A DNA stretch of 64,000 bases, from positions 64,792 through 128,791 of the forward strand of contig JBAZMQ010000001.1 in the NCBI GenBank assembly GCA_041649675.1, in the 5' to 3' direction. Positions 10,856-33,298 of this stretch are shown in pieces. The position numbers were made by a program, and so were the translations under genes. Position 1 is the stretch's first letter. Every line of letters starts with the position of its first letter. Under the pieces are notes generated by a model that searched no databases, was not told the DNA's origin, and saw only the letters and a program-made list of their open reading frames with translations. Origin of the DNA: Patescibacteria group bacterium (GTDB taxonomy: Bacteria > Patescibacteriota > Patescibacteriia > Buchananbacterales > UBA6539).

Positions 10856-11503
10856 ATGGTAATCAACTCTGACTTTGCCACCGCCACGGCCTTGAATGTG
10901 ATTAATGTTTTTTCCAATCAAGTAGCCGATACGGCAAACCAGGCTGCCTTTTCGGGCAAAGATTTGTGGTTTAGCTTTTTAGGCATCAATTGGGTAACAC
11001 CAACTTGGGATTTGATTATTTTGCTTTTTTTAATCATTAGTGTTTTAATTTATAGCTTTACCTTAGGCCGCGATCGAATCGTGGCAATTTTAATCAGTAC
11101 TTACCTGGCTTTAGCCGTTACCACTAATTTGCCATTTATGGATAAATTGGCTGCCTGGTTAAATCAAACTCACATTTTTGGTTATCAAATATCAGCCTTT
11201 CTGATTGTTTTTGCAGTTTTGTTTTTAATGCTTTCGCGCAGTACTTTGACCCAAATGATTAGCAATTTGTCGGGCAGTTGGTGGCAGGTAATAATTTTAT
11301 CCTTACTTCAGGTCGGATTATTAATCAGTATAATTCTTTCGTTTTTGCCGCCCTCAGTTTCTAATTCGCTTTCCGATTTTACCAAAATTATTTTTACTAG
11401 TGAGCTAGGCAAGTTTTGTTGGATTGTTTTGCCAATCCTGGCGTTGGTATTTTTTCAGCGCCGGGCCAATAGGTTTGATTTTTCTAAATTTGACTTAGAT
11501 TGA
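10856..11503 (+). CDS. Integral membrane protein (about 5 TM; CvpA-like?)
   Basis: Hydrophobic profile only. Confidence 0.4.
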   Translation: MVINSDFATATALNVINVFSNQVADTANQAAFSGKDLWFSFLGINWVTPTWDLIILLFLIISVLIYSFTLGRDRIVAILISTYLALAVTTNLPFMDKLAAWLNQTHIFGYQISAFLIVFAVLFLMLSRSTLTQMISNLSGSWWQVIILSLLQVGLLISIILSFLPPSVSNSLSDFTKIIFTSELGKFCWIVLPILALVFFQRRANRFDFSKFDLD

Positions 11504-11526
11504 TTTTTTGTTTAAAGTGTTTAACT

Positions 11527-12096
11527 ATGAGTACAAACCAATTTGGTTTAGTTGATTTGGAGTCAGTTAATCCAAAGATAAAAATTGACATTCGTTACGC
11601 TAGCCAAGATAATTTCACAAAGAAAAAACTCTATTCTAGCGCCAGATGTTTTTTACAAAAATCAACGGCTCAAAAATTAAGTGATATCCAAAACAAGCTA
11701 GAAAAGCAAGGATTAGGTTTAAAAATTTGGGATGGCTATCGGCCGCTTTCAGTTCAAAAAGAATTATGGAAGATTATGCCTGACGAGCGTTATATTGCTA
11801 ATCCCCAAACTGGTTCGGATCACAATCGAGGGATTGCCGTTGATTTAACCTTGGTTGATTTGCAGGGCAAGGATTTACTGCTGCCAACGGAATTTGATAA
11901 TTTCAGTCCCAAGGCTCACCGAAATTGTTTTGATTTAACCGAAGAACAGATTAAGAATCGAAAAATTTTGGAAGATATTATGGTCAAAAGCGGTTTTATT
12001 CCTTTTCCGACTGAATGGTGGCATTTTGCCGATAGCGAAGGTAAGGATTTACCAGTTTTGGATATTGATTTTGTGGCCCTATCGTCTAGCGGCTAG
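11527..12096 (+). CDS. D-alanyl-D-alanine dipeptidase-like peptidase M15 (VanX/DdpX family)
   Basis: IDIRYASQDNF, DGYRP...LW, SDHNRGIAVDL and EWWHF motifs. Start taken at the internal Met (ORF track 11500). Confidence 0.7.
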   Translation: MSTNQFGLVDLESVNPKIKIDIRYASQDNFTKKKLYSSARCFLQKSTAQKLSDIQNKLEKQGLGLKIWDGYRPLSVQKELWKIMPDERYIANPQTGSDHNRGIAVDLTLVDLQGKDLLLPTEFDNFSPKAHRNCFDLTEEQIKNRKILEDIMVKSGFIPFPTEWWHFADSEGKDLPVLDIDFVALSSSG

Positions 12097-12149
12097 GACA
12101 TCAGGTTCTCATCCTGAAAACCGGGGTCCGATTCCCCGTGGGGCTACCA
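12075..12149 (+). tRNA. tRNA, Glu-like (anticodon CUC by manual fold), with encoded CCA
   Basis: Manual cloverleaf: acceptor GGCCCTA/TGGGGCT, D-arm TCGTCTAGCGGCTAGGACA (Glu-type), anticodon stem TCAGG/CCTGA with loop TTCTCAT, T-arm CGGGG-TCCGATT-CCCCG, then A + CCA. Two oddities: C at position 55, and the first 22 nt overlap the 3' end of the upstream CDS. Confidence 0.6.
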
Positions 12150-12153
12150 AAGG

Positions 12154-12188
12154 GAACTACTTAGTGAAAAAGTAGTTCTTTTTGTTTT
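12154..12188 (+). terminator. Intrinsic terminator after the tRNA
   Basis: GAACTACTT-agtgaaa-AAGTAGTTC followed by TTTTTGTTTT. Confidence 0.7.
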
Positions 12189-12311
12189 AGTTAAGAGAAG
12201 AAATCGAGTTTGCCACTTTAAAATCGTGGTGGTAAACTTAAAATTGATTAAAAACATTAAATTTGCAATAATTTAAACGATTTGAGTTGAGTTTGTCGCC
12301 AATGCCGGTCG

Positions 12312-13157
12312 ATGAACTATAAATATACTATGTCGGATTTAACTGCTATCGAAAAAAGAAAGCTTGAAAAACATTTTCAAATGGGAGGTGGGGTAGTTTG
12401 CAACTTTTCTAATAGAACTTTTGCAAATCAAGTTTTAGATTCTATTGGTTTAGATGTATATGTTGATAAATATAAAATTTTTGGTGAATCAAAGGCTAAT
12501 CGATTGAGGGCTCTCTGGAAGATCGAGAATAACTATACGATATCAAAACTTCTTATTGGCATTTTAGAATATTGGAAAGCAGAGCGGACTTTACTAAGTG
12601 TTGATGAAAGTATGTGGAGCGAAGCCTTTAACCCTGAGCTACATGAAGAATGTTTAAAAATAGCTGAGCGTTTAAAAAATAATACTGCGATGGGAGATTT
12701 AGATGCCTTAGAACAATATAATCTTGATGATAATTATGAATTATTAACTGATTCGATAAAGACAAGCATACTTAAAGATAAACCCGATCAAGCGATTGAT
12801 AGAATGCATACGTTTACAATAAAACGTATGCGCTTACTTTGTGACAAACACAATATTAAATATAGTAAGGATACTTTTCTCCATACTTTATTTGGTAACT
12901 ACGTGAAATTTTTGGAGGAAAATAAATTGATTCAATCAGAAATGTCATTAAGAATTTTGAAATCGTCAATTTCTATCTTGGACGCCTTTAACTCCGTAAG
13001 GAATAGCCATAGTTTAGCGCACGATAATGAAATTTTAAATAGAAATGAAAGTATACTAATTTTTAGTAATATTTTTAGTCTTATTAAATTTATTGATGCT
13101 ATAGAAGAGAGCTCTTCCAGCAACACAACTAATGAGATTGAGAATATCCCTTTTTAA
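12312..13157 (+). CDS. Abi-like protein with C-terminal HEPN-type motif (putative abortive-infection/toxin RNase)
   Basis: 281 aa, very AT-rich. C-terminal R-x6-H (VRNSHSLAHDN) resembles the HEPN Rx4-6H motif. Sits in the island next to the recombinase; its 3' end overlaps the recombinase 3' end by 29 nt. Confidence 0.45.
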   Translation: MNYKYTMSDLTAIEKRKLEKHFQMGGGVVCNFSNRTFANQVLDSIGLDVYVDKYKIFGESKANRLRALWKIENNYTISKLLIGILEYWKAERTLLSVDESMWSEAFNPELHEECLKIAERLKNNTAMGDLDALEQYNLDDNYELLTDSIKTSILKDKPDQAIDRMHTFTIKRMRLLCDKHNIKYSKDTFLHTLFGNYVKFLEENKLIQSEMSLRILKSSISILDAFNSVRNSHSLAHDNEILNRNESILIFSNIFSLIKFIDAIEESSSSNTTNEIENIPF

Positions 13158-14553
13158 TAAATTGTAGTTCGTCATCATAATCAACTCCATCAGGCGTAAC
13201 CCTGATGTTTTTTAATAGACTATCTATCAGCCTGCGCTTTTGTTCTCCGTTGGCTTGCTGGTAAGCGTGAACGGGATCACCCAGCAGACTGGCTAATTCT
13301 AATTTATGATTTAACCCACCGTCATCATTTGGATTAATTCTTTGCAACTCACTTTCAAGCTCAGCTATATTCTTGGCGTACTCGGCCCGCTTCAGGTCAA
13401 ACATATCTCTGGGAATCTCGCCATCTATATTTTTATCAATCAGCTTGCTTAGCCTTAATCTGGCTTGCCCGATTTGAAGAACAATTGATTCCTTCTTTTG
13501 AATCATGGCCAAGGCTAATGATTTTTTGGTTTTATGAGCTTGCTCAATCATCTCATCGACTTGGTCGGGCGTGAACCGTATCTTTGTTAATTCGTCTAAT
13601 ATCCAAGTCTCAACCAACTCTTCCTTTATAGGCTTCATGCTGCACAATTTATTACGGCAGTAGTAATAGTGGTATTTATGCTTTGATGTCGTTGACCGCA
13701 AGCGCTTTCCACAGAGACCGCAACTCAGAATATGGACAAATTTGTATTCGTTGACTTGCAACTTAGGTATTGCATGCCGTTTTTTGACGGCCTGTACTTT
13801 GCTATAAAGTTCTTCCGAGACTAATGGCTGATGTTGCCCTTGAAAGATCTGCCCCTTTACCGTGACAAAGCCCAGGTAATATTTATTATTCAAAAGCGTG
13901 CAGAGCTTTGTATATCTCATTTTATTGCCGAAACTACTCCGTAAGCCTTTGTTAAACATAATGGTCTCTAAATCAAGCAGTGAATATTCGCCAGTGGCAT
14001 ACAGTTTGAAACATTCCGAAATAAGCGGACCCATAATCGGATCCACTACACGTATGCTCTTGCCGCCCTTTACATAACCTGTCGGCACATTGCCGAATGG
14101 CGAATAACCCTGACTCAGCCGTTTGTACATGCCCTCTTTTACCCTGGTACTCAAAACACGAGTGTCATTTACCGCCATGACCGCTTTAACGTCAGCCATC
14201 AGCCTATCGCCGTTACTTTTGAGCTGAATGTTTTCCCGGCTTAGATGGATTTCCAAACCCTCGTCCATCAAATTACTGATTATCGCCCAGTCACGAAAGT
14301 TCCGACTGCTTCGGTCGACATCGTGAAAAATAATACCGGCAATATCATTCCGTGATTCAAGGTCGCCGATCATCTCGTAGAATTTTTTGCGTTTGGCAAT
14401 TTTTGATGCGCTCTGAACTTCCCGAAATTCTTTGGCAATGACAAGACTGTGACTATTCGCGTATGCGACAATAGCTTCACGTTGGGCATCCAAGGATACA
14501 CCGTCCCTTTCCTGCCCCTTTGAACTGACTCGATAATAGCTGAAATATTTCAT
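13129..14553 (-). CDS. Large serine recombinase (resolvase/invertase N-domain plus recombinase and zinc-ribbon/coiled-coil C-terminal domains)
   Basis: N-terminus YYRVSSKGQ..DGVSLDAQ with catalytic Ser and conserved R/D; 474-aa length; Cys cluster (CGLCGKRL...YYCRNKLC) typical of LSR zinc ribbon. Confidence 0.85.
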   Translation of the reverse strand: MKYFSYYRVSSKGQERDGVSLDAQREAIVAYANSHSLVIAKEFREVQSASKIAKRKKFYEMIGDLESRNDIAGIIFHDVDRSSRNFRDWAIISNLMDEGLEIHLSRENIQLKSNGDRLMADVKAVMAVNDTRVLSTRVKEGMYKRLSQGYSPFGNVPTGYVKGGKSIRVVDPIMGPLISECFKLYATGEYSLLDLETIMFNKGLRSSFGNKMRYTKLCTLLNNKYYLGFVTVKGQIFQGQHQPLVSEELYSKVQAVKKRHAIPKLQVNEYKFVHILSCGLCGKRLRSTTSKHKYHYYYCRNKLCSMKPIKEELVETWILDELTKIRFTPDQVDEMIEQAHKTKKSLALAMIQKKESIVLQIGQARLRLSKLIDKNIDGEIPRDMFDLKRAEYAKNIAELESELQRINPNDDGGLNHKLELASLLGDPVHAYQQANGEQKRRLIDSLLKNIRVTPDGVDYDDELQFIKKGYSQSH

Positions 14554-14634
14554 CGTCGTTGTAATTTGATTATATGAGACAAGCGTTTGATTTCGAATGA
14601 TTTCTGACTATTTCCTGTATGTTGACCGATATTC

Positions 14635-14685
14635 TCTGCATCTCAGTTTCCCGTAACCTTTAGGTTACGGAAACTGAGATGCAGA
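14635..14685. repeat. 51-bp near-perfect palindrome (24-nt arms around TTTA) immediately upstream of the serine recombinase gene
   Basis: TCTGCATCTCAGTTTCCCGTAACC-ttta-GGTTACGGAAACTGAGATGCAGA; single 1-nt bulge. Confidence 0.8.
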
Positions 14686-14697
14686 ATTAGATTACGG

Positions 14698-15639
14698 CTA
14701 CGTTAGCCGATAAAAATGTTTTCCCTTGACCCCGACTTCCTTCTCAAGTTTTTTATCCTTAACCATCCGATCAAGCAATTCATCTGTAGCCGACTCGCCA
14801 ATTAAACTTTTTACAGATTCAACTAAATCCTGTCTTGATTTGATCCCGTTATCTTTTATCTCTTCGATAATTTTTGTCCAAGCCATGTCATTCTTGTCTT
14901 CCTCCTGCTTTGTCGTTCCTGCATAACTAAATTTTACCGATTTGTCAGATTTATCAATTTTTAACTGGAACGTATCCATCTCTTCGGCGATTCTTAATTT
15001 GCCCTGAGTAACTTCGATAATGGTTTTTTTATTACGTGCGGCAACCATTAAATGACAATCCACAGCAGCCAAAATATCCGACGACCCTCTTAGGTTAATA
15101 TTTGATTGACCACGTTCGTTACCCTTTCTTAAATGGTGGGTAATTATTACAGTAACTCCTAAGTTTGTAATCTTGTTAAACAGCGAAAAAACATCCGACA
15201 CCTGTCCCGCAATATTCTCATCTTTGCCGTGGATTCTAACAAAGCTGTCAATACATACGAGCCTAATTTTTTTAGCTTTTATGAACCTTAGTAAGTCTTC
15301 TTCGTCTTCAAGTTTATCAATCCGAAACCCATGTTTACTGGAGATGTGAATCACTCCCTTATTTGTCATGTTGACTAACTTGAACCGTTCCTTCATAAAA
15401 CTTAAATTATTTTCCTCATCGATTATCAGCACCTTCCCTTTTAAACAGTCAAATTGGTCAAATAGTTTTTCACCAAGTGAAACAGATTTTGCAATTTCGA
15501 TCAGTATCCAGGTTTTAAAGTTTCCAGGATGGCCAGACAGAATTGTGATTCCTTGGGCAGGAATTAAATCCTTAATTAACCATTTCGGTGCTTTTAGATT
15601 TTTGCGCAATAATTTTGCGACTGCTATAGTATGTAACAT
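14698..15639 (-). CDS. RecA-like/AAA_25-type ATPase (RepA-like replication/primase-helicase loader of mobile elements)
   Basis: Walker A-like GHPGNFKT, Walker B VLIIDEEN, and a C-terminal winged-helix-like tail; family assignment from memory. Confidence 0.55.
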   Translation of the reverse strand: MLHTIAVAKLLRKNLKAPKWLIKDLIPAQGITILSGHPGNFKTWILIEIAKSVSLGEKLFDQFDCLKGKVLIIDEENNLSFMKERFKLVNMTNKGVIHISSKHGFRIDKLEDEEDLLRFIKAKKIRLVCIDSFVRIHGKDENIAGQVSDVFSLFNKITNLGVTVIITHHLRKGNERGQSNINLRGSSDILAAVDCHLMVAARNKKTIIEVTQGKLRIAEEMDTFQLKIDKSDKSVKFSYAGTTKQEEDKNDMAWTKIIEEIKDNGIKSRQDLVESVKSLIGESATDELLDRMVKDKKLEKEVGVKGKHFYRLT

Positions 15640-15981
15640 ACAAGTTTAGATTATTGAGATTAATTAGAACGACTAAAACTAAAACTAGCCAGGCCCATCT
15701 CGGCAATTAAAAAACATCTCGTCATAAATTTCTAAAATAACGTCTATATATTCATATGATATTTTTTGCTGTTGCTTGTATTGCATAAAAAATAAACAAA
15801 AAAAGCCCGCAACAGCATATGAACTAAGTGTTCACACACTATTGCGGGCTCCTTACCGCTTCTGACCATCACTCGCGATGGATTTTCCTACAAAAATGTA
15901 GTACCGTCTTTAATTTTTAATATTCAATTTAGTCACCTTACACCTTATTTTAAAAAAAGTCAAGACTAAGCCTGTGTATAA

Positions 15982-16476
15982 TTATTTTAATTTTAATAAA
16001 AAATCTACAATAAATTTTACAAAAGGCTCACTTTTTTCCTGGGCAAATTTTTTGGCTTTACGCTCATCTTCAATAAAAAGGGAATCTCGTTCTATTGGAG
16101 GTTGTCCAGTTTTTTTATCAATAATTAATTGATTGAATCGATCAATCTCATCGGCATAATCATAAATACCGTCTACGGCTATACTGTTATATGTTCCACA
16201 TTCACAGATGGCAGCCATCTCTTCATATTTAACAACTAATGTGGTTTTATTCCCAACTTTCATTTTTGCTCGACTACCGTGTATATCTGCAACAATCATT
16301 TTTTTGCAATTAGAACAAACCCAAGTTTCAATTCCAGCCTCAGGGTTAATCTGTATTCTACCGTTTGTTATAATTTCATTTGTAGGCCTTGCCTTATTCG
16401 CCTCTTCAAGTGATCCAAAAATTTTGATTTTTTCTTGGTTGATAGAATCTAGTAATTTTTTATTCATGTAAGTCAT
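15982..16476 (-). CDS. Hypothetical protein with Cys4 zinc-ribbon-like motif (CSNC...CECG)
   Basis: 164 aa; no family recognised. Confidence 0.4.
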   Translation of the reverse strand: MTYMNKKLLDSINQEKIKIFGSLEEANKARPTNEIITNGRIQINPEAGIETWVCSNCKKMIVADIHGSRAKMKVGNKTTLVVKYEEMAAICECGTYNSIAVDGIYDYADEIDRFNQLIIDKKTGQPPIERDSLFIEDERKAKKFAQEKSEPFVKFIVDFLLKLK

Positions 16477-16848
16477 ACAGTTTAAATTAAATCTACCTTT
16501 ATTTTACACAAAAAAATACCGTTTTGTCCAAACGGAGTCAAATTCAGTCGTATTTTACAAGTTTACCCCTTGGCGATAGGGTAATTCTTTTTTTACTATA
16601 TGCGGCTCTAAATCGTCCGTTTTAACATCCTAGCGCCGTGATTAAACTCGAACTGGCTGTCAATAACGCTAGCCTAAAGCGATCTGAAATTATGAGTTTA
16701 AATACATATAGAGCTTGCCCCGAAATAGCATAGAGAGAATTTAAAGAATATTTTGATCAATTTTTGAGGCTGCAACTGCTATGCTTCGAATGATTTGATT
16801 TAAAATAATCGACAATTTCAGACGTAAAGTATTTGAAGGCAAGTAGTT

Positions 16849-17061
16849 TTACTTTGGCTGAATCATTTCCCAAAGATACTGTTTCTCTAGCTCCAGCGAT
16901 TTTATTTTTGCGTCATGCAGCATTTCCTGATTTTTGATTTCAACATCAATAGCTTCTAGTCGTGCCATTACCTCCAAAAATTTATCCGGATTAACCCCTT
17001 TCTTCGCTCGCTTCTTTCTAAGATGTTTAACGTCCGCTCCTTGAACTTTTTTATTTGTCAT
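16849..17061 (-). CDS. Small basic coiled-coil protein (70 aa), unknown
   Basis: Lys/Arg-rich N-terminus and heptad-like C-terminus; could be a DNA-binding regulator. Confidence 0.3.
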   Translation of the reverse strand: MTNKKVQGADVKHLRKKRAKKGVNPDKFLEVMARLEAIDVEIKNQEMLHDAKIKSLELEKQYLWEMIQPK

Positions 17062-17072
17062 ATTGTGTTCGA

Positions 17073-17591
17073 TTATTTATATTTTCTTATACAGTCTACT
17101 TTACAGACACTTCTTTGGGTACCAGTTAAATTATTATCACTGCATTCATTTATGCAATCTTCGTATTTTGATTGAACCGATATATATTTTTGTCTTGATA
17201 TATATTTAATCGAGTAAACAATGCCGATCAATAATGTTACTACGACTATAGGCACAAATATACCAATAATAAATTGTTTATTAATCGAAGTAGTTTTTAT
17301 ATTACCTAACTGCGGTCTACTTTGTTTAGTCGCTTTCCATATCGATTTAATTATAAAATATAATCCTAAAATATTCAGGGCAAAGGCGATAAATGATGCA
17401 CCACCCCCGACCAGATATCCAACGTAATTACAAACAATAATTAACCCAAAACCAATAGCTAATGATAACAAAAGATTGTCGGTTGTTTTTTCGACAAATT
17501 TTGGTTCTTTCATAGAGTTAGTTTTAAAAAAATAATTAATATTGTTGTAATCAAAAAACCCACCGCTAGGGCGGTAGCTTGCGCTACCCAT
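17073..17591 (-). CDS. Membrane protein (3 TM) with Cys-rich C-terminal tail (CINECSDN...CKVDCIRKYK)
   Basis: Hydrophobic profile; the likely start is the internal Met (MKEPKF). Confidence 0.4.
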   Translation of the reverse strand: MGSASYRPSGGFFDYNNINYFFKTNSMKEPKFVEKTTDNLLLSLAIGFGLIIVCNYVGYLVGGGASFIAFALNILGLYFIIKSIWKATKQSRPQLGNIKTTSINKQFIIGIFVPIVVVTLLIGIVYSIKYISRQKYISVQSKYEDCINECSDNNLTGTQRSVCKVDCIRKYK

Positions 17592-17609
17592 ACTCCTTTC
17601 GGAATATGA

Positions 17610-17657
17610 CCTGGTTAAGGGATACCCTAAACGATGGGATCTATGTCCTTAACCAGG
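17610..17657. repeat. Inverted repeat CCTGGTTAAGGGA...TCCTTAACCAGG (13-bp arms, ~23-bp spacer)
   Basis: Located between the divergent membrane gene and gajA. Confidence 0.6.
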
Positions 17658-17810
17658 ATTTTCAGCCATGCCCCACAAATGCAAGGTTTAGGCTGGTTTG
17701 ATTGTACCCATTAATATTAATCTTTTTGCTAAATTTTGTAAATATTCGCTTGATTTTTGGCGTAAAAGGAGCTAATGTAAATTTAAAGCTATAAAAAATA
17801 ACCAATAAAT

Positions 17811-19724
17811 ATGAAGATTAAAAGACTAAAAATTGAAAATTTCCGATCAATTAAATCCTTGGACATTGAATTGGATGACACTTCGGTTTTTATCGGCGCT
17901 AATAATGCTGGTAAGTCTTCAATACTGGAAGCAGTACGAATTGCTTTATCTCGAAGATGGGGTCAACAAGGGACTGGGTTTACTGAGGATGATATTCATT
18001 TAGTTAACGATAAGATAGATCCTCGGAATGCGCCACCAGTAAAAATTCGTTTTGAGTTTGAAGAAGGATCATCGGGAGAATGGCCTACGGACATGGTGGC
18101 TGAACTTGAACAAATAATGACTCTTACGCCCACAAATTTAAATAAAGTTACGTTTACGATATCTTATATATGGAATCCCGAAAAGGAGTTGTTTGAAACA
18201 ACCTGGCAATTCCTGAATTCATCGGGAGATCCATTCCCGTCGGCTAGTAGATCAGTTAACTTCTCTGGATTTTTTAATTATATAATTTTTCTTTGGGTAG
18301 GTGCTTTACGAGATGCAGATGATGAGTTTACATCACATTCACGTAATTGGGGTGGTCTTTTGAAATCCATTAAAATTCCAAAAGAAATCGAAGAGGAGAT
18401 AAAAAATGATCTCGATGTTCTTGATGAAAAATTACTTCGGGCTGATCCCAAATTTTTGCAGATATCAGAAACCATTGGAAAAGCAACTGAAATTACTATT
18501 GAAAATGGTCCTGGTTCTGCAAAAATTCGTATGCTGCCAATAAATGTTTGGGATATGATTACACGAGCTGGTATAATTCTTAAAAATGAAGACTTGCGCC
18601 CCTGGCTTCCGCTTAATCATCATGGTCAAGGCCTTCAAAGTTTATCAATTATTTTTCTGTGCCATGCTGCAGCGGCTCAAAAACTTGTTGAGAATAATTT
18701 TGGTGCTGAACCCATATACGCAATTGAAGAGCCGGAAGTTCATCTACATCCTCAGGCTGCTCGTACTTTATGGTCCAAGATGACTGAAATTGCTGGGCAA
18801 AAATTAATAACAACTCATTCGCCTTATTTTGTTCAGAACGTGCCACTCCATAGCCTTAGAGTTGTTCGTTTGCAGGATGATTCTACTTCAATTTCATTTT
18901 TACCAAAAAAGATTGAGTCTGATATACCGTGGACAGAAGACGTTGAAAATTTTGTTAAAGGAGCAGGCAGAAATTATTTTAAATTGAATAAGCTAACCAA
19001 CTCAATTGATGCCATTCAAAGTTTTGATGAAAATATTATGAATGATTTAGTACATTGCTGGAAAGTAGATAATGACGACCTAATATCGAATAAAATAAAA
19101 GAATTACGACGTAAGTCTAGCGTACTTGTCTCAGAAGAAGAAGAAAGAAATTTATCTTTTCAAGGAAGACGTATTCGTGGAGAAATATTTTTTGCACGTT
19201 TTTGGGTTTTGGCGGAAGGGGTATCTGAATATTTGTTACTCAAAGCCATTGGTGATGCTTATGAATTTGATTTAGATCAATATGGTGTAGCAATTATTGA
19301 TTTTCAGAATAATGGAAGGCCAGATATCTATGCAGCTTTAGCAGAGGCTTTTAAAATCCCGTGGTTTATGATTACTGACGGCGATGGTGCTGGAGAAGCC
19401 ATGAGAAAGCAACTATCAAAAAGAGGATTTGATGCTAAATATCTTCAAGAACATTCTGATTTTTTGCAATCGCCAAATACTCTTGAGGCTCAGCTACTTG
19501 CTGATGGAAATGGACCTCTACTTAGAAAAATTATTGCAGACACTGGTGATACTAGTGCATTGACATGCTCAGTTGATGATTTTAAAAATAAACTTAGCAA
19601 TAAAAAAACTCCCTGTATGAGTCGTCTCGCTTCATTAGTCTCAAGAGATATAACTCTCGCAAAGAAAATGCCAGAAAAATTTATTTCAATAATTGAAAGA
19701 ATTAAATCTGACCATCAATTATGA
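17811..19724 (+). CDS. gajA: Gabija GajA-like OLD-family protein: N-terminal ABC-type ATPase plus C-terminal Toprim nuclease
   Basis: N-terminus KIENFRSIKSLDIEL..VFIGANNAGKSSILEAV (OLD/AAA_15-like P-loop). C-terminus Toprim_OLD-like (VLAEGVSEYLLLKAIG...IIDFQNNG...ITDGDGAG with E and DxD). The TGA stop overlaps the ATG of the downstream helicase (ATGA). Confidence 0.75.
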   Translation: MKIKRLKIENFRSIKSLDIELDDTSVFIGANNAGKSSILEAVRIALSRRWGQQGTGFTEDDIHLVNDKIDPRNAPPVKIRFEFEEGSSGEWPTDMVAELEQIMTLTPTNLNKVTFTISYIWNPEKELFETTWQFLNSSGDPFPSASRSVNFSGFFNYIIFLWVGALRDADDEFTSHSRNWGGLLKSIKIPKEIEEEIKNDLDVLDEKLLRADPKFLQISETIGKATEITIENGPGSAKIRMLPINVWDMITRAGIILKNEDLRPWLPLNHHGQGLQSLSIIFLCHAAAAQKLVENNFGAEPIYAIEEPEVHLHPQAARTLWSKMTEIAGQKLITTHSPYFVQNVPLHSLRVVRLQDDSTSISFLPKKIESDIPWTEDVENFVKGAGRNYFKLNKLTNSIDAIQSFDENIMNDLVHCWKVDNDDLISNKIKELRRKSSVLVSEEEERNLSFQGRRIRGEIFFARFWVLAEGVSEYLLLKAIGDAYEFDLDQYGVAIIDFQNNGRPDIYAALAEAFKIPWFMITDGDGAGEAMRKQLSKRGFDAKYLQEHSDFLQSPNTLEAQLLADGNGPLLRKIIADTGDTSALTCSVDDFKNKLSNKKTPCMSRLASLVSRDITLAKKMPEKFISIIERIKSDHQL

Positions 19725-21616
19725 CTTCGAATTTTGATGAATCGTTTATTGAACTTAGTCCAATTCAACGTGATGCCGTTAACTGGGGTGATGGCGCTCT
19801 TTTAGTTCTTGCTGGCCCCGGCGCAGGGAAAACAAGAGTTCTTACTACCCGCATTGCCAAATTAATTTCTGATAATCCTGAACGAAAATTTAAGATCTTA
19901 GCATTAACATTTACCACCAAAGCTGCATCCGAAATGCATGATCGCGTAGAGACGCTAATACCTGGAGTTGTTGATAATAGAACATTTATCGGAACATTCC
20001 ATGCTTATTGCACTCAAATTTTACGGCAGCATGGTTCTCATATCAACATTCATCCTGATTTTAGCATATTTTCCCAAAGAGAAGATCAGGAAGCTCTTCT
20101 GCTTGATGCAATTAATTATTCAATAAAGCAAGGGAAAAAATTCTCAATTGATGACGTAAAATTGCTGGACACAATAAAAATTTTGAAATCTCGTTTAATT
20201 GTTCCTGAGAAAACATTACTAAATATTAACAACCCACATCTCAAGGAGGTATACGAACTATATGAGCAAGCATTGAAGAGTGAAAATGGAATAGATTTTG
20301 AAGGGCTCATCTTGGAAACTTGCAGATTACTCGCAAAGATGCCCGCAATTTCAGCCAGAATAAGACAATCATATCCCTATTGGCTGATTGATGAATTTCA
20401 GGACACCTCACCATCTCAGTATTGGCTCTTACATTATCTTGCCGGCGATCAATTTAAAAATATTTTCGTCGTTGCCGATGACGATCAGATAATTTATCAT
20501 TGGGCAGGTGCTAGTTATAGGCAGATAGAAAAATTTAGGGAAGAATATAAACCAGAGCTTATCCAACTTGTCGAGAATCATCGATGTCCACCTGAAATTG
20601 TTGATATGGCAAATCAATTAGTTGCTTATAATACCCAAAGAACACCTGACAAAAAACCCACAACTCCTGGAAGAGATATTCCTTTAGACGCCGTGCAAGT
20701 GAAAATTTTCGGCAATGATAGGGATGAATATGCGTCAATCTCCAATGCTATTTATTTACAAGGGGAGGGATCCTGGGGAAAGACAATAATTTTAGGCAGG
20801 ACAAAATCATTACTTGAATCTATGATAGAAAGTCTCAAATTAAAAGGTGTAAGGGCGGTGATATCACAAAGGAGAGACAATTTTATCTCACCGCAATTTA
20901 TTTGGTTGCAAGCAATGATTGATCAAATAATCCATCCTACCAATAAACGTATTTTTAATATTTTTGCATATGCGGCCAATAGGGTATGTGGCCTAGAATT
21001 CGACCCAATACTATTAATTGCCGAAGCAGAATCGGTGAGCAAAAATTACATTGAACATTGGTCAGAGATAGTCATGTCGTCCGATAATGATGTGGCAAAA
21101 AAATTGGGATCTTTAATTCAACAGCTCATCCAATCTAGGCAAAGTTGGAAAAAAATAGTCAAGGATGCTATAAGTACCTTACTTGAAACTGGTCGAGTTA
21201 CACAGGATGCCGTCAGTGACGCGGATGATGATTATAGAGCTTGGACCGCATGTTTAAGAGAAATTCAATCTGAAATTGGTCAAGACTTAGATCTTTCAGA
21301 TGTTGTTCAGGGAATAGCTCTCCGTTCAAAAGAACCTCCAATTGTACCTAATACGGTGACGCTCATGACAATACATGCAGCCAAAGGGCTTGAATTTGAA
21401 ATTGTGTATATCATCGGACTCGCAGAAGGAGAAATGCCATCCTGGCAAAGTTGTAAAAAGGGAGATACCTCACCTGAAATGGAGGAGGAGCGTAGAAATT
21501 GTTTTGTTGCAATTACCCGGACACAAGAAAAACTTGTGTTATCTTCTTCTGGGGTTTATAGGGGATTTGAAAAAAAATCATCCCGTTTTTTAAAAGAGAT
21601 GAAATTAATCTCATAG
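19721..21616 (+). CDS. gajB: Gabija GajB-like UvrD/PcrA/Rep-family SF1 helicase
   Basis: Walker A AGPGAGKTRVLT, motif II DEFQDTSPSQY, and a C-terminal helicase domain (TIHAAKGLEF...). Translationally coupled to gajA. Confidence 0.75.
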   Translation: MTSNFDESFIELSPIQRDAVNWGDGALLVLAGPGAGKTRVLTTRIAKLISDNPERKFKILALTFTTKAASEMHDRVETLIPGVVDNRTFIGTFHAYCTQILRQHGSHINIHPDFSIFSQREDQEALLLDAINYSIKQGKKFSIDDVKLLDTIKILKSRLIVPEKTLLNINNPHLKEVYELYEQALKSENGIDFEGLILETCRLLAKMPAISARIRQSYPYWLIDEFQDTSPSQYWLLHYLAGDQFKNIFVVADDDQIIYHWAGASYRQIEKFREEYKPELIQLVENHRCPPEIVDMANQLVAYNTQRTPDKKPTTPGRDIPLDAVQVKIFGNDRDEYASISNAIYLQGEGSWGKTIILGRTKSLLESMIESLKLKGVRAVISQRRDNFISPQFIWLQAMIDQIIHPTNKRIFNIFAYAANRVCGLEFDPILLIAEAESVSKNYIEHWSEIVMSSDNDVAKKLGSLIQQLIQSRQSWKKIVKDAISTLLETGRVTQDAVSDADDDYRAWTACLREIQSEIGQDLDLSDVVQGIALRSKEPPIVPNTVTLMTIHAAKGLEFEIVYIIGLAEGEMPSWQSCKKGDTSPEMEEERRNCFVAITRTQEKLVLSSSGVYRGFEKKSSRFLKEMKLIS

Positions 21617-21686
21617 ATAATAATGATTTATTGTAAAAATTAAAATTTCGGCCAATTAACAAATGATTTATAAGGTTCAATTTATA

Positions 21687-21715
21687 AGTTTGCCACTCAT
21701 TACGACAAGCTCTAC
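21687..21715 (+). repeat. Direct repeat A (AGTTTGCCACTCATTACGACAAGCTCTAC)
   Basis: About 25/30 identical to 25466-25495. Confidence 0.6.
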
Positions 21716-21877
21716 TTTAGTGATTGTGAGGTAGAGGCACGCTTTCTCCTTAGTTTACTCCAACCGAGGAGTAAACTGACCTACACATAAGAGTAGGAAT
21801 TTAAAGTATATTAGTATTTTTTTCTTAATTTACCAATCGCAATTTATAGGTCGCTTACCAGGCGATTTTTTAGTTTA

Positions 21878-21921
21878 ATAAAAAAATCCCTGCAGTCTTG
21901 TTTGGTACAAATCTGTAGGGA
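21878..21921 (-). terminator. Intrinsic terminator of the GH16 lipoprotein gene
   Basis: On the minus strand: TCCCTACAG...CTGCAGGGA followed by T7. Confidence 0.6.
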
Positions 21922-21941
21922 AAATATAATCAAAGGAACGG

Positions 21942-24218
21942 CTAGTTGACTGCCGGCGGTTTAATGAAGAACTGCTGGCCGATCGGGTCACGGCTATTTC
22001 CTAGGAAATAGGTTTTGACAAACGACAGTTCTTTGGTGTCACTGTCATAGCGCAAGACTTCTATTCCCTGGTGATCGAGGCTGCCATTATTGTAGTTGTA
22101 GGCGCTGCGAGCATAGACCAGACCGTCAGGTCCGACCTTGACGTAGTAGGCGCCGTACTGGGCATAACGGCTGACAACCGCATTGTCGGCAAAGCTATAG
22201 ACGGCAATTTCACCTTTACCATAGTAGGGATTGCCACCAGCTCCAATAAAGGCAAGGCTGCTGTCTGGCAAGAAATCAACTGCACCGGCAAAATCACCTA
22301 GGCCGGAGTAACCGAACTGGTGTTGGAAATTATGCAGGTCATAGACGCTGACCGAACCCCGTGCAGAGGAGTAGCTGGTTTGGAAGAAATAGTTGCCTAA
22401 CGGGTCAGTCAGGGCGAGGTGATGTCCATAGCTAACCGGCATAACCGAGGCATTCAGCGTATCCGTGGATAGATCCACCAGATTCCAGCTACCGTTTTCC
22501 ACTTGAGATAGTGTGCCATTATTCAAGCGGACGGTGTTGTAGCCGCCATCCACGTTAATAGGGAAGTTGCTATCCACAAGTGTTCGGGTCGTAATGTCGT
22601 ACTTGTTGTTTTCTAAGTAGCAGAACCGACTATCGGCCGAAAACAACGGCAGGTAATACGAGGTAGTCTCGTCTGATGCATAATACAAATCATTAGTGCT
22701 GATGGATGCGGGGAAAGGCAGAGGATCGCCGTTTAGCGTGTGATCCGAAGTCTGATAGACATTCCCTTTGACGTCAACAACATATTGCCCGTCAGGTGTT
22801 CCGGCTAGCATTATCACTTCGGGCAAAGCACCCCAGATCACGCTCTTAGTTAGATTAACCACCAGTGTGGCCGACAGGTCCTCGGTGGGCATATAAAGCA
22901 GCTCATCTTGGGTTGTGGTTAAACTTTGATCACAGGTGATTTTGTAAGTGATTGAATTACCCACCTTGTTGCCGGAATCATCTTGCCCTTGCAAAACGAA
23001 CTCATTGGTTCCGGGTTGTAGGGTGGCTAAGTAGAGAATCTTGCCGTAGAGGTCGGTTTTATCAGTAGGGATGACTTGGTCGCCAATTTGTACTTGGGTA
23101 ACCCGCCAGTCAAATACGGTTGTCAAGGGATAGCTGGTCAGATTGGTCGTCACCTTGATTTCGTCGGGCCAATCGGGTGGAGTTGGCTGAAAAGCAAACC
23201 CCGAAATCAGAACTGCCTGGGTCGCACCATTGCTTGGCGGCTTACCTTCAAACTGCCACAAGTTCAAGTGGACTCTTTCCTCGCCGGGCGTTGGCACAAG
23301 CGGACCTTCATATGACCATTTTTTAATCAAGGTGTCGGGATCTGTGGGCGGACTATCAAGATATTTACCTTGATAAGTGCGCATTTCCACTTTGCCCGGA
23401 CTCCAGATCAGGTAAGTGGTGATGTCGGCGTTTATGTCCTGGTGGAACCGATTACAGTTATCCATACCTACGAGACATTGGCCACAGGGTGGAACGGCGT
23501 ATTGGCAGTTGTTTTCGTCTGCGGCGTTGCCAAACTGACTGAATTCAAAGAAATCAATTTCCCGGTTGTTTGGGTCGGTGTCAGTATCATCCCACAGGAA
23601 AATACCGAAAACCAAATAAGAATCAGACGCCAGGGCGGGGTAGTGTTTCTTAAGTTGAACAATATACACGCCGTAGCCAAACGATTGGTCAAGAATTACT
23701 TCACTTGACTGCCATTTGCCGTCCTGTTCTTTGACTGCCAAATGAAGAACGCCGCTATCATCAACCCAGGCATTCTTTGGACTATACGAATTTGGTCCAG
23801 GACCAACCGGCGAAGGGTAACACTTTTTGGTCCACGGCAATCCGGAAAAATCAAACGCTAGGTTTTCGCTTTCGCATTCGTCTTCGCCCTCGCCTTCACC
23901 GCTTGGGATAACCATCAGCGTGGCTACGTTAGAATAGACACAGCCGGCTGAATTTTTGGCAAATGCCCGGTATTGTCCCGCATCATTTTCAGTGACAACG
24001 GGAAGTGATAGAATTTCTCCACCGGCATCGGCAACTATGATGTCATCTTTCAACCAGCCGATTGTTTCGGCGTTTTCAACTCCGACGCTAAACTGAACAT
24101 TCGCGCCGACGCTGACCGTCTGTGATACTGGCTGCTCGATGATTTTTGGCAGTTGAGGACAACCGGCCAAAAGTATCATTGCCGCTACAATCACAATCAC
24201 ATTCCATTTGCTTTTCAT
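21942..24218 (-). CDS. Secreted lipoprotein with glycoside hydrolase family 16 (beta-glucanase/laminarinase-like) domain plus Ig-like and beta-propeller-like regions
   Basis: Lipobox LLAGC; GH16 catalytic motif E-I-D-F-F-E (REIDFFEFSQ); (GE)n linker PSGEGEGEDECESE. Gene is markedly GC-rich relative to its neighbours. Confidence 0.55.
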   Translation of the reverse strand: MKSKWNVIVIVAAMILLAGCPQLPKIIEQPVSQTVSVGANVQFSVGVENAETIGWLKDDIIVADAGGEILSLPVVTENDAGQYRAFAKNSAGCVYSNVATLMVIPSGEGEGEDECESENLAFDFSGLPWTKKCYPSPVGPGPNSYSPKNAWVDDSGVLHLAVKEQDGKWQSSEVILDQSFGYGVYIVQLKKHYPALASDSYLVFGIFLWDDTDTDPNNREIDFFEFSQFGNAADENNCQYAVPPCGQCLVGMDNCNRFHQDINADITTYLIWSPGKVEMRTYQGKYLDSPPTDPDTLIKKWSYEGPLVPTPGEERVHLNLWQFEGKPPSNGATQAVLISGFAFQPTPPDWPDEIKVTTNLTSYPLTTVFDWRVTQVQIGDQVIPTDKTDLYGKILYLATLQPGTNEFVLQGQDDSGNKVGNSITYKITCDQSLTTTQDELLYMPTEDLSATLVVNLTKSVIWGALPEVIMLAGTPDGQYVVDVKGNVYQTSDHTLNGDPLPFPASISTNDLYYASDETTSYYLPLFSADSRFCYLENNKYDITTRTLVDSNFPINVDGGYNTVRLNNGTLSQVENGSWNLVDLSTDTLNASVMPVSYGHHLALTDPLGNYFFQTSYSSARGSVSVYDLHNFQHQFGYSGLGDFAGAVDFLPDSSLAFIGAGGNPYYGKGEIAVYSFADNAVVSRYAQYGAYYVKVGPDGLVYARSAYNYNNGSLDHQGIEVLRYDSDTKELSFVKTYFLGNSRDPIGQQFFIKPPAVN

Positions 24219-24474
24219 GACTCAACTCCTTGTTTTTGAGATCCTATTACAACCAAACCATCAGTCTAAGCCCAGTGCCTAGCTGATGTTTTAATTTTCT
24301 ATGAAAGGTAGCTAATTTTCAAAGAGCCACCTCCAATAATTTAGCTTATTCTTACGGCTAAAATCTGTCAAATTACAAAATTCATGACATAATTATTCTA
24401 AAAATCAGGAGGTTTAAATAATCTAGAGGATATAGGTGCCAGCACCATTATTAGTATTATGATTAGAATCAGAA

Positions 24475-24501
24475 AAATCCCAGCTTATCTGGGGATTTTT
24501 T
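24475..24501. terminator. Bidirectional hairpin (AAATCCCAG-cttat-CTGGGGATTT) flanked by A- and T-runs between divergent genes
   Basis: Seen directly; no annotated gene ends here. Confidence 0.5.
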
Positions 24502-24695
24502 ATTAAAATTTTATTGTGGTTTTTGTTTTTTTAAAGAAAATGTTATAATATGAAAAATAATGTAATAAATGACCGTGAAACAAACACCTTGCTCAATTTT
24601 TATAAAGACTACTGGTTTAGTTTTTTTTATTTTTACTTATTGCTAGCAATCATCCAATAGCAGCTCAGGCGACTGGCGGGGTATAATAATAGCAT

Positions 24696-25454
24696 ATGAC
24701 ATACGCTAAAAAAGTTTTGCCAATAATTAGATCAGCGGGCAAAGAATTATTGAAATATTACGGTAAGATTAAAATTTCTAGACAAAAAGGGAAATTAGCT
24801 CATACGGTTGTCACCAAGCTTGATTTAAAAACGGAAAAGTATCTTGCCGCCAACTTGCACAAAATTTATCCGACCATTGATTTTTTTGGTGAAGAATTTG
24901 GCGGGAAAAAGAAGGCTAAAAGATTTTGGGTTGTTGATCCAATTGATGGCACAGCGCATTTTATACGCGGTGTTCCTTTTTGTACTACCATGATTGCCCT
25001 TATTGATTCGGGCAAAGTAATTTTTTCTATAATCAATAATTTTGTGACCGGTGAAATTTTTTGGGCTGAAGTTGGCGAAGGCGCTAAGCTAAACAACAAG
25101 CCAATTCATGTAAGTAGCCGTCAATTGGTTGATGGCTATTTGACCTATGAAATAAACCTTGATAAAAAAGAAAATCTTGATTTATTTCTTGATTTGAAGA
25201 AAAAAACCATGCTTTTTAAAACGGTTACTTGCGGTTATGAGTTTGGTTTGATTGCTAGTGGTAAAATTGAAGGCCGCATTGCCTTGGATCCATATGGTGA
25301 TGATTGGGACTATGCGGCTGGGTCATTGCTGGTAAGCGAAGCCGGTGGCCAAGTAGTCAATATTGGTAAAAATTCTTATAGCTACACAGACCATAATTTT
25401 ATCATGGGTAACCCCACTGTCTGTAAAGAGATAAAAAAACTTTATCATATTTAA
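24696..25454 (+). CDS. Inositol monophosphatase family protein (SuhB/IMPase-like)
   Basis: WVVDPIDGT metal-binding motif and WDYAAG; TATAAT 8 nt upstream of the ATG with no SD (leaderless-like). Confidence 0.8.
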   Translation: MTYAKKVLPIIRSAGKELLKYYGKIKISRQKGKLAHTVVTKLDLKTEKYLAANLHKIYPTIDFFGEEFGGKKKAKRFWVVDPIDGTAHFIRGVPFCTTMIALIDSGKVIFSIINNFVTGEIFWAEVGEGAKLNNKPIHVSSRQLVDGYLTYEINLDKKENLDLFLDLKKKTMLFKTVTCGYEFGLIASGKIEGRIALDPYGDDWDYAAGSLLVSEAGGQVVNIGKNSYSYTDHNFIMGNPTVCKEIKKLYHI

Positions 25455-25465
25455 TTGTAACTTTT

Positions 25466-25495
25466 AGTTTGCCACTCATTGCCACAAAGTTCTAC
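25466..25495 (+). repeat. Direct repeat B (AGTTTGCCACTCATTGCCACAAAGTTCTAC)
   Basis: Matches repeat A at 21687-21715. Confidence 0.6.
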
Positions 25496-25537
25496 CATCA
25501 AATAATCTAAACATTGAATATTAAGTAAGCAATTCTA

Positions 25538-25720
25538 GTGCCAATTTACATTGATAAAAATAAATGTCCGCAAAATCATGCTTGTCCGGCCATAAAGGTA
25601 TGCCCGGAAAAAGCTTTGTCGCAAAAAGGTTTTAACGCACCCCAAGTTGATAGGGAAAAATGCCGGGAGTGCGGAATTTGTTCAAATCTTTGTCCCAAGG
25701 GCGCTTTGCAGCTTCGGTGA
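25538..25720 (+). CDS. Small 4Fe-4S ferredoxin-like protein (GTG start)
   Basis: Two Cys clusters, CxxxCxxxCP and CxxCxxCxxxCP. Confidence 0.55.
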   Translation: MPIYIDKNKCPQNHACPAIKVCPEKALSQKGFNAPQVDREKCRECGICSNLCPKGALQLR

Positions 25721-25796
25721 TTAGCGCATTAAAAAGGTATTACAATTTTGTCGTTTGAATCGCCTAAGCGGCGGTTTTTTGGTATACTAAAATCAT

Positions 25797-26879
25797 ATGA
25801 AAATTATTACTAACCCCATTGAATTGGCAAAAAAATTAGTCAGTATTAAATCAGAAAGCGGCAATGAAGAGGCGGTGACCAAGTTTATATTTAATTATTT
25901 AGCAAGCATTGGTTTAAAACCTAAATTGCAAAAAATTGAAAAGAATAGAAACAATGTTTTTGTAGTCGGCCAGGGACCAGTGCTATTTAATTGCCATATT
26001 GATACCATTCCAATTGGCCAAAAAACTAGCTGGCAGCATAACCCGCTGGGCGAAATTAAGACGGGTAAATTATTTGGCCGCGGTAGCTGCGACACAAAAG
26101 GTAATGCGGCTTGTATTTTGTCAGCCTTAGCAAAAAATCCGAGCCGAAATGTAAGTTGCTCGTTTACAGTGGGCGAAGAAAATACCATGGTTGGCGTTAG
26201 GCAATTAATGAAATTAAGAAGAACTAACTTAAAGCAGATTAAATATTGCGTTAACCTTGAGCCAACCGAATTAAAAATTATCAGCGCACACAAGGGCAGG
26301 ATGTTTTTTACGGTTTTAGCCAGCGGAAAAGCAGCACACGGTTCCGTACCCAGCCAGGGTGATAATGCCATTGTAAAATTAGCCAATGTTACTTTATCAA
26401 TAAATAAATTTGCTACCAGCTTGAAAAAAATAAAACATCCAATTCTGGGAAATCCAACTTTGAATATCGGAGTAATTAAAGGGGGAGTAATGGCTAATAT
26501 TGTACCGGACAAAGCGGAAATTGAAGTTGATGTTAGAATTTTACCGAATCAAGGAATTAAGCAATTTATTGCCAATTTTACTAAGGCCGCCAAACCAGCC
26601 AAGGTAGAATTAATTTCTTATCTTGATCCCGTGGAATTAAAAATCAATTCCGATATTATTGAAAAGATGAAATTAATCCTTAAAGAATTAGGCTTAGAAT
26701 CTAAGTCGCAGGGGATATTTTATACCACTGAATTCAGTGAACTAAAAAAACATAATATTCAAGGTCTGATTTTTGGCGCCGGCAGTATTAATCAAGCCCA
26801 TATGATTGATGAATATGTCAAAATTAAGGAATTGCAACTCTGCCATCAGGCGCTGGGTAAACTAATTAAAATTGTTTAA
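25797..26879 (+). CDS. M20 family metallopeptidase (ArgE/DapE/CPG2-like deacylase)
   Basis: HIDTIP and GRGSCDTKG motifs with a dimerisation-domain insert. Confidence 0.7.
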   Translation: MKIITNPIELAKKLVSIKSESGNEEAVTKFIFNYLASIGLKPKLQKIEKNRNNVFVVGQGPVLFNCHIDTIPIGQKTSWQHNPLGEIKTGKLFGRGSCDTKGNAACILSALAKNPSRNVSCSFTVGEENTMVGVRQLMKLRRTNLKQIKYCVNLEPTELKIISAHKGRMFFTVLASGKAAHGSVPSQGDNAIVKLANVTLSINKFATSLKKIKHPILGNPTLNIGVIKGGVMANIVPDKAEIEVDVRILPNQGIKQFIANFTKAAKPAKVELISYLDPVELKINSDIIEKMKLILKELGLESKSQGIFYTTEFSELKKHNIQGLIFGAGSINQAHMIDEYVKIKELQLCHQALGKLIKIV

Positions 26880-33178: not shown

Positions 33179-33298
33179 GGACCGACACCAAAATCGGTTT
33201 TTTTGTGATGTTGTAATGTGTTAGTCATAGGCTTCAATATTAGGTTGGGGCTTTGGTTTAAAATTGGCAGATCTCAAATAAAGGAAAGGTATTGTGCC

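Follow-up and report, generated by a model that had tools for sequence, protein, structure and literature searches.

We analysed a 64-kb stretch of DNA, hereafter the window, whose source is labelled by NCBI as a metagenome-assembled genome (MAG) of the Patescibacteria group. The 9.5-kb block at about 12.15/12.18-21.69 kb of the window (all coordinates are positions in it unless a comparison locus is named) is probably one integrated copy of a family of mobile elements of the candidate phyla radiation (CPR), inserted through a large serine recombinase (LSR) immediately 3′ of a tRNA-Glu(CTC) gene. It is most likely an integrative element, resembling a plasmid or a satellite, that carries defence genes as cargo. 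The element is distinguished by its LSR, an ATPase with an AAA_25 domain, a conserved end sequence next to the tRNA, and an RNA gene of the LOOT family (Rfam RF03000). The family is apparently undescribed: the literature searched yielded no description of these elements or of the genetic context of LOOT. An initial annotation of the window had recognized the protein genes of the block, but neither the LOOT RNA nor the architecture that is conserved across the family.

The family was traced through contigs carrying homologues of the AAA_25 ATPase or of the LSR; the comparison loci of this analysis bear L-numbers, such as L002, L022 and L102. Judged by sequence comparison, related elements share one plan, which runs from the tRNA gene through the conserved end, an optional cargo slot, a convergent LSR gene, a hairpin, the AAA_25 gene and small open reading frames (ORFs) to LOOT and a variable defence cargo. 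The genes for the AAA_25 and LSR homologues are neighbours in L102, L105, L107, L115, L117 and L143; L113 has an LSR without AAA_25. The LSR gene closes the element and faces, in convergent orientation, the 3′ end of a tRNA gene, which is tRNA-Glu(TTC) in L102 and tRNA-His(GTG) in L113, L115, L117 and L143. It converges likewise on tRNA-Ala in L107 and on tRNA-Ser in L002, a contig from IMG/VR, and in L105 alone no tRNA was seen. The 3′ end of the LSR gene abuts or overlaps the convergent tRNA gene in L107, L113, L115, L117 and L143, and its reading frame runs into the tRNA gene in L107, L115, L117 and L143.

A long inverted repeat was present just after the AAA_25 stop codon in every AAA_25-bearing member tested (L102, 1748-1794; L105, 10955-11004; L115, 9804-9851; L117, 9020-9077; and L107). 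Its arms are 17-22 nt long in four members, and the repeat in L107 is longer and imperfect; the sequence varies and the position is kept. In the window, a near-perfect long palindrome occupies 14635-14685, between the AAA_25 stop and the LSR promoter, with about 23 bp per arm and a 4-nt loop by our own reading. This palindrome, kept in position next to the AAA_25 gene, is the only candidate for an origin, and the inverted repeat may serve as terminator, operator or origin. In the tRNA-His group, a second, short gene with Resolvase and Recombinase domains (247-266 aa; L113, 8047-8790; L117, 9188-9931; L143, 9189-9989) lies directly upstream of the LSR gene, and the window element is without it.

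The host gene that marks the insertion point is tRNA-Glu(CTC) at 12075-12149 on the plus strand (ARAGORN; 56 bits in Rfam). Directly after it, a terminator scan detected a hairpin with a T-run (12148-12184, plus strand), and the conserved element end, TTCTTTTTGTTTTAGTTAAGAGAAGAAATCGAGTTTGCCACT, lies at 12176-12217 on the same strand. This end sequence is identical at 42 of 43 nt (97.7%) between the window and L102, though their tRNAs and terminators differ, while the proteins of the two elements are only 45-62% identical. The difference suggests selection on the end sequence.

The pattern of the end is a terminator plus TTTTTGTTTTAGTTAAG-N12-GTTTGCCACT, or TTTTTGTTTTAGTTAAG-N12-GTTTGCCA(C/G)T. 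The distance between the tRNA end and the GTTTGCCA box is 57-60 nt in the window, L102, L113, L115, L117 and L143, and the latter five have a hairpin at the same post-tRNA position. In the tRNA-His group the end sequence is inside the LSR coding region, while in the window and L102 it is non-coding and parted from the LSR gene by cargo. Because the same sequence is coding in one group and non-coding in the other, it behaves as a cis-acting element end. Among 117 loci, TAAG-N6-16-GTTTGCCA was found at the family ends, at a second copy in the window and at two sites within coding sequences (L105/L106 and L079). The L079 match and the internal L105 match at 9692, both inside coding sequence, were judged to be chance matches and rejected as element ends. 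In IMG/VR, a strict pattern of the end sequence gave 0 matches, and a loose pattern gave 11 unrelated coding matches without tRNA, LSR or LOOT, which were also rejected.

The end sequence contains the exact 11-mer AGTTTGCCACT, which the initial annotation had named direct repeat A. It occurs at 12207 (12207-12217) and 21687 (21687-21697), with a third copy at 25466. By our own arithmetic, a given 11-mer is expected about 0.03 times in 64 kb on both strands, and its recurrence is real and not due to chance. The repeat exists as had been noted but does not establish an att duplication: the left copy is within the conserved element end, while the right copy is in host-orthologous DNA. The right and third copies are in host DNA upstream of Fdx or in DNA paralogous to that region, where the orthologous place in the relative L022 reads GTTTGCCAGT. 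The left copy supplies the -35 box of a promoter-like TTGCCA-17-TAAACT (12210-12238, plus strand; promoter scan) that reads into the first cargo slot. The same box is found in L102 and inside the cargo of L105, with the hexamers and the 17-nt spacing kept in L102 and upstream of a MunI-type cargo gene in L105. All three copies in the window fit TTGCCA-17/18-TAnnnT. The 11-mer could be an attP/attB core common to both sites, a resemblance between promoters or a scar left by an older element of the family. Recombination by serine recombinases produces no target duplication, and a search of the locus gave no repeat derived from the tRNA, which is compatible with attP x attB recombination by an LSR through a short (2-bp) crossover.

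LOOT was detected at 17573-17694 on the minus strand with 93.6 bits, against a gathering score of 46.4, over model positions 1-121, that is, the whole model. From promoter to terminator the RNA gene spans 17553-17742 on this strand, with a promoter-like TTTACA-17-TAATAT at 17742-17714 and a terminator hairpin with a U-run from 17577-17560 onward, and it sits between the Gabija genes and a leftward block of small ORFs. Over 56 nt, its promoter matches the LOOT promoter of L105 at 87.5% identity. In all nine LOOT copies examined, a block of unrelated small genes began immediately 3′ of the RNA gene, with its first gene on the strand of LOOT. The score reached or exceeded the gathering score in the window, L105, L107 and L115, was 45.2 bits in L113, and L143 had a divergent copy (nhmmer, 3.5e-7); altogether, six of the seven elements carry LOOT or a LOOT-like RNA.

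When sampling began from LOOT, all four IMG/VR contigs (L002, L004/L018, L020 and L134) proved to carry an LSR. L002, L020 and L134 also have a ParB-methylase gene and a helix-turn-helix (HTH) gene, and a large terminase was confirmed by Pfam in L002 and L134. The LSRs of the terminase-bearing contigs are 27-30% identical to that of the window. The invariant LOOT motif was absent from 80 DnaJ-anchored loci, mostly from CPR MAGs and about 1.2 Mb in all. A second pattern scan retrieved 25 DNA stretches, one of which was a true LOOT by nhmmer. A role of LOOT as a guide RNA for the junction is not supported: it matched the tRNA junction, by k-mer identity or by complementarity, no better than shuffled controls did. 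In the literature searched, the LOOT motif shows strong covariation and appears only as a metagenome-derived small RNA motif for which no organism or function is given (PMC7779021, PMC7657543, PMC11701678); the present analysis locates it in CPR genomes, within mobile elements that carry an LSR.

An invariant CCUAAAC...GCAUGG and a conserved CCGAAAGG loop were found across the copies in the window, L002, L004, L018, L020, L105, L107, L113 and L115; we infer a variant 11-nt GAAA-tetraloop receptor that would dock the CCGAAAGG loop. The same DNA pattern, which resembles a tetraloop receptor, also retrieved group I introns. Past the 3′ end of the Rfam model, all of these LOOT copies have an extra G-rich tail and a U-run, and in the window the hairpin of this tail overlaps the last LOOT helix. 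One 40.7-kb IMG/VR contig has two different copies (L004, 2421-2538, 75.2 bits; L018, 7852-7981, 68.8 bits), one of them adjoining a terminase-like gene, with an LSR gene on the same contig.

A DnaJ-anchored scan covered one genome per species. The nearest DnaJ proteins, from MAGs of Ca. Buchananbacteria or Patescibacteria, were 77% (L022), 72% (L023) and 69% (L024) identical. This comparison places the host in the CPR, near Ca. Buchananbacteria, in line with the CPR-like host that had been proposed. The order GrpE/DnaK-p95-DnaJ-215-aa membrane protein-tRNA-Glu(CTC) is kept in all three genomes, with divergence after the tRNA, and none of the nine island genes is found at the tRNA-Glu locus of any of them. 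Conserved synteny of the block in all relatives, which would have contradicted the initial annotation, is thus not seen, and its view of the block as an integrated element without housekeeping functions agrees with the absence from these three genomes.

L022 has a small membrane ORF after the tRNA; next, within 0.7 kb of the tRNA, comes AAGTTTGCCAGTCATTAAGGCAAGCTCTAC, and beyond it lie Fdx and IMPase. This 30-mer upstream of Fdx (L022 3262-3291), in a relative without the island, shares 90% identity with window 21686-21715. Because these sequences are orthologous, host-type DNA resumes 70 nt after the GajB stop codon, and together with the tRNA side this sets the island at about 12.15/12.18-21.69 kb. 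The right junction (21617-21715, plus strand; match to L022) consists of a 70-nt AT-rich spacer, the second 11-mer copy and host DNA. Sequence comparison with the nearest genomes thus presents the block as inserted.

All of the genes that had been annotated in the block (Abi, LSR, ATPase, three proteins of unknown type and Gabija) were found at the positions given for them when ORFs, Pfam and PADLOC were examined. The LSR gene (13129-14553, minus strand) is convergent with the tRNA and encodes 474 aa, as had been reported. The protein has a Resolvase catalytic domain with its serine nucleophile (PF00239, 3.3e-22, residues 4-149; YYRVSSKGQ is readable) and, C-terminal to it, Recombinase and Zn_ribbon_recom domains (PF07508 and PF13408, both above their cut-offs); it also matches PHROG 95, integrase, at 3.6e-76. 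It is about 62-63% identical to the LSR of L102 and 41-48% identical to those of the tRNA-His group, but at most 28% identical to deposited phage integrases. No close relatives were found in IMG/VR, and a metagenome scan with an LSR alignment gave relatives of 23-33% identity among the matches listed.

The AAA_25 gene (14698-15639, minus strand) encodes a RecA/RepA-like ATPase, a putative replication helicase. The RecA-fold ATPase domain, which the initial annotation had recognized, was confirmed (PF13481, 8.9e-26), with readable Walker A (GHPGNFKTW) and Walker B (VLIIDEE) motifs. Its matches in PHROGs were to the ATPase part of phage primase and primase-polymerase proteins. Homologues are at most 47% identical, many of them from Patescibacteria, and identity to plasmid proteins in PLSDB is at most 28%.

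Three small proteins lie between the ATPase and LOOT, all encoded on the minus strand. For p164 (15982-16476; 161-164 aa), the four conserved cysteines of the expected zinc ribbon are present in the 164-aa ORF. It belongs to a tiny four-cysteine zinc-ribbon family, with 9 homologues among 1.84 billion representatives, and its predicted structure (pLDDT 75.5) had no structural match. The 70-aa protein p70 (16849-17061; ORF translation) is basic and helical as described, while the coiled coil attributed to it has sub-threshold matches only. The membrane protein with a Cys-rich tail, p146 (17073-17513), is the first gene after LOOT. It is present as annotated, but its length of 172 aa did not hold: the real start is 17513, giving 146 aa as in the public gene call, because the upstream part of the 172-aa ORF is the RNA gene. 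It is weakly similar to a 71-aa ORF in L113. Apart from the coiled-coil match of p70, none of p70, p146 and p164 had a match in Pfam, PHROGs, NCBIfam or PADLOC. The spacers between AAA_25 and p164 (15797-15940, minus strand) and between p164 and p70 (16510-16560, minus strand) each have promoter-like boxes and a strong hairpin with a T-run; in the former, the scan found a 20-bp hairpin terminator at 15804-15850 on the minus strand. Neither spacer had an Rfam match or conservation in other family members, and further small transcripts are possible there.

No capsid, tail, terminase or lysis genes were detected among the nine ORFs with Pfam, PHROGs and NCBIfam, so the block does not qualify as a prophage. 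Likewise, none of the genes that mark a conjugative or mobilisable element (relaxase, coupling protein or type IV secretion system) was detected with Pfam and NCBIfam.

The anti-phage cargo that had been annotated was recovered in two slots. In the first, between the element end and the LSR gene, lies the Abi_C gene (12312-13157, plus strand; the gene-caller start at 12330 gives 275 aa), convergent with the LSR gene with the 29-nt 3′ overlap that had been noted (13129-13157). Its product, named abortive infection family protein by NCBI, matches PF14355 with 36.4 bits against a cut-off of 24 (5.6e-9). The R-x6-H motif of HEPN type, also noted earlier, is readable (VRNSHSLAH) and fits the R-x4-6-H of HEPN/Abi_C proteins; no PADLOC model matched the protein. 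Its N-terminal ~81 aa (window 12312-12560) are 44% identical to a cargo protein of L002 (8367-9119) whose C-terminus is Hypoth_Ymh (HEPN), suggesting that two HEPN effectors of different families have one unnamed N-terminal module in common. The same slot in L102 holds HNH_5 and a 301-aa protein.

The second slot, beyond LOOT, holds the GajA/GajB pair, and both proteins are full length against the PADLOC Gabija models. GajA (17811-19724, plus strand; PDLC00062) is an OLD-family ABC ATPase with a Toprim nuclease domain. It matches PADLOC at 7e-217 over positions 1-632 of 639 and Pfam AAA_15 and OLD-like_TOPRIM; the motifs GANNAGKSS, IEEPEVHLHP, LAEG and DGDG are readable, and the best PDB match is the OLD-family nuclease 6p74. 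GajB (19721-21616, plus strand; PDLC00114), a UvrD/PcrA-type helicase, matches PADLOC at 3e-223 and Pfam UvrD-helicase and UvrD_C. The two genes overlap by 4 nt (19721-19724). As in the Gabija of B. cereus VD045, and like an OLD nuclease with a UvrD-type helicase, an ABC-ATPase and Toprim nuclease is followed by a UvrD-type helicase in overlapping genes. The relation to B. cereus Gabija is not a close one, however, with only remote matches to solved chains: GajA matches at 2.6e-6 over the N-terminus only and GajB at 1e-12, and the 631-aa GajB of the window is closer to PcrA/UvrD (1e-68) than to the ~495-aa GajB of B. cereus. The window Gabija is thus a distant subfamily, and mechanistic details may differ. 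By Pfam names and context tables, the cargo beyond LOOT is an OLD/GajA-like nuclease in L115, MT-A70, MunI and DUF4238 in L105, and SMEK_N/CTD10, MC6 and DUF2326 in L117. The initial annotation had held that defence islands are rarely described in CPR bacteria; this needs correction, since CPR defence systems have been catalogued and a high defence density reported (PMC12259885).

The following course would account for these features. Excision by the LSR would release the element as a circle, and the same enzyme would insert it again at tRNA flanks. Replication of the circle would be made possible by the AAA_25 ATPase, which is RepA-like and has a winged-helix-like tail at its C-terminus, and perhaps by the neighbouring palindrome; the element would then be an integrative plasmid or, if packaged by a helper, a satellite. 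LOOT, with its own promoter and terminator at the head of an operon reaching the replication and LSR genes, would regulate that operon; the P4 CI and P1 c4 immunity RNAs are analogues for such a role. The Abi_C/HEPN gene and the Gabija pair, in their two cargo slots, would protect the host cell, and hence the element, against phages. We extend this to the family only tentatively, as a proposal somewhat short of an even chance: LOOT would be a functional, family-defining part of undescribed CPR elements, exchangeable carriers of anti-phage genes whose LSRs insert 3′ of tRNAs (Glu, His, Ala, Ser) via an end of ~45 nt, and would act as an immunity or copy-control RNA or as another cofactor.

A number of observations weigh against the reading of the whole block as one integrated element. 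Neither long direct repeats nor a tRNA-Glu 3′ remnant was found at the far end. Exact-protein look-ups for strain variants with or without the island (LSR, IMPase, VanX and membrane protein) returned the same sample only, or nothing; the other contigs carrying these proteins were all identical, with no excised form, empty site or polymorphism among them. The comparators, at 69-77% identity in DnaJ, are other species than the source. L117 has no LOOT. The AAA_25 match is to a generic RecA-like ATPase, and the role in replication is putative. Control by LOOT, as an element-encoded regulatory RNA, of the operon it heads would be the weakest step, argued from analogy.

Further points against it would also fit a composite island, in which the mobile element is ~12.18-17.75 kb only, from Abi to LOOT, and Gabija came separately into a variable hotspot beside it, with at least two independent insertions. 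LOOT is always at the edge of the conserved core, and no distal-end sequence common to family members was found; with this and the lack of a tRNA remnant, the inclusion of Gabija rests on position and analogy. GC content at third codon positions (GC3) is uneven, 0.46 in the LSR gene against 0.24 in GajA and 0.24-0.30 across GajA/GajB. The locus beyond the island is itself rearranged relative to L022, with VanX, a 758-aa lipoprotein and the IMPase/Fdx order differing from the comparators. Nevertheless, we consider a composite origin unlikely, because defence cargo is at the same spot, just past LOOT, in L105, L115 and L117, host-orthologous DNA is back just 70 nt past GajB, and the left-end 11-mer recurs exactly at that point. 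A phage satellite with no replicative plasmid life, induced and packaged by a helper phage as for P4 and the phage-inducible chromosomal islands (PICI), has a layout like that of P4 to recommend it: the integrase lies at the att end, the replication protein is of helicase type, a small RNA heads the operon, and there are defence hotspots. LOOT and an LSR of related type in the IMG/VR contigs L002, L020 and L134, with their ParB-methylase, HTH and (in L002 and L134) terminase genes, would point to possible helpers or packaging-competent relatives. But the LSRs of the terminase-bearing contigs are as distant as given above, and the window element has no recognisable gene for capsid, terminase, packaging site or helper interference, which makes a purely satellite life improbable. 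Lower still is the chance that the block is a decayed, immobile remnant, fixed at a tRNA hotspot with an inactive recombinase, its 11-nt repeat being a shared promoter -35 box. The common promoter form of the three 11-mer copies, the use of the same box for a cargo gene inside L105 and the lack of polymorphism in the exact-protein look-ups would all agree with decay. They are to be set against core ORFs that are intact and full length against profiles, a LOOT that matches the full Rfam model, and an end sequence shared with L102 far more closely than the proteins are.

The neighbourhood of the integrated element shows changes of its own. A gene for a VanX-like D-Ala-D-Ala dipeptidase (11500-12096, plus strand) lies between the membrane-protein gene and tRNA-Glu, its 3′ end overlapping the tRNA by 22 nt, and is absent from L022, L023 and L024. 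An independent Logan contig from the same sample spans window 12098-25945 and thus breaks 2 nt after the VanX stop. On the other side, two segments of ~30 nt (21686-21716 and 25465-25495), about 80% alike and both resembling L022 3262-3291, flank the 758-aa lipoprotein gene (minus strand) and IMPase, and the IMPase/Fdx order is inverted compared with L022. The paired segments and the inverted order suggest a second rearrangement or insertion adjoining the island. Two large putative lipoprotein genes, at 21942-24218 (minus strand) and 33218-36841 (plus strand), have a GC content of 0.49-0.52 and a GC3 of 0.54-0.55 against ~0.34 in their neighbours. They are mutually dissimilar; the 758-aa one has sub-threshold Ig-domain matches in Pfam and none in NCBIfam or PADLOC. 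Both are probably recent acquisitions from a higher-GC donor. In addition, 21716-21880 (plus strand) is a well-folding stretch of 165 nt (z = -3.98) after a promoter-like TTGCCA-17-TACTTT at 21691. It ends in a weak hairpin with a T-run (21848-21875), has no ORF and no Rfam match, and may represent a small RNA or else a leader left stranded from the ancestral Fdx promoter.

The CPR makes up a large share of bacterial diversity, and few of its mobile elements have been described. The present family provides an element type recognisable by four markers (LSR, AAA_25, LOOT RNA and a conserved end at tRNA flanks), which would move Gabija, OLD nucleases, restriction-modification systems and HEPN proteins between CPR genomes. 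The orphan LOOT RNA gains a host lineage and a genetic context, so that its function becomes testable. New tools for site-specific integration might be drawn from the recombinases and their short conserved ends.

The integrative plasmids pSAM2 and SLP1, of the type of the actinomycete integrative and conjugative elements (AICE), have tyrosine integrases and long tRNA-derived direct repeats. Like them and like tRNA islands, the window element is small, lies 3′ of a tRNA, and has a recombinase at the att end, its own replication ATPase and accessory cargo. Unlike pSAM2 and SLP1, it has a large serine recombinase, no tRNA duplication, no transfer gene that could be found, and a CPR host. Satellite P4 has a tyrosine integrase, the CI immunity RNA and an integrase-proximal defence hotspot. 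With P4 satellites the window element shares an integrase-proximal anti-phage hotspot, a helicase-type replication protein and a structured RNA with its own terminator heading the replication operon; however, there is no sequence relation, there are no genes for capsid size or helper control, and LOOT is unrelated to CI RNA. The LSR has the three domains of the recombinases of Bxb1 and phiC31, of SCCmec Ccr and of XisF, although its NCBIfam matches to CcrB and XisF are weak and far below the cut-offs, and its identity to deposited phage integrases is low, as stated above. In mycobacteriophages, tRNA genes are reportedly not used by serine integrases (PMC9262239), whereas the LSRs of the CPR family are consistently at tRNA flanks, the opposite pattern. 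As a small integrative element with defence cargo, the island is of an ordinary kind; it adds to prior knowledge in that the recombinase at the tRNA flanks is of the serine type, that the end sequence is conserved and, most of all, that the orphan LOOT RNA is consistently present.

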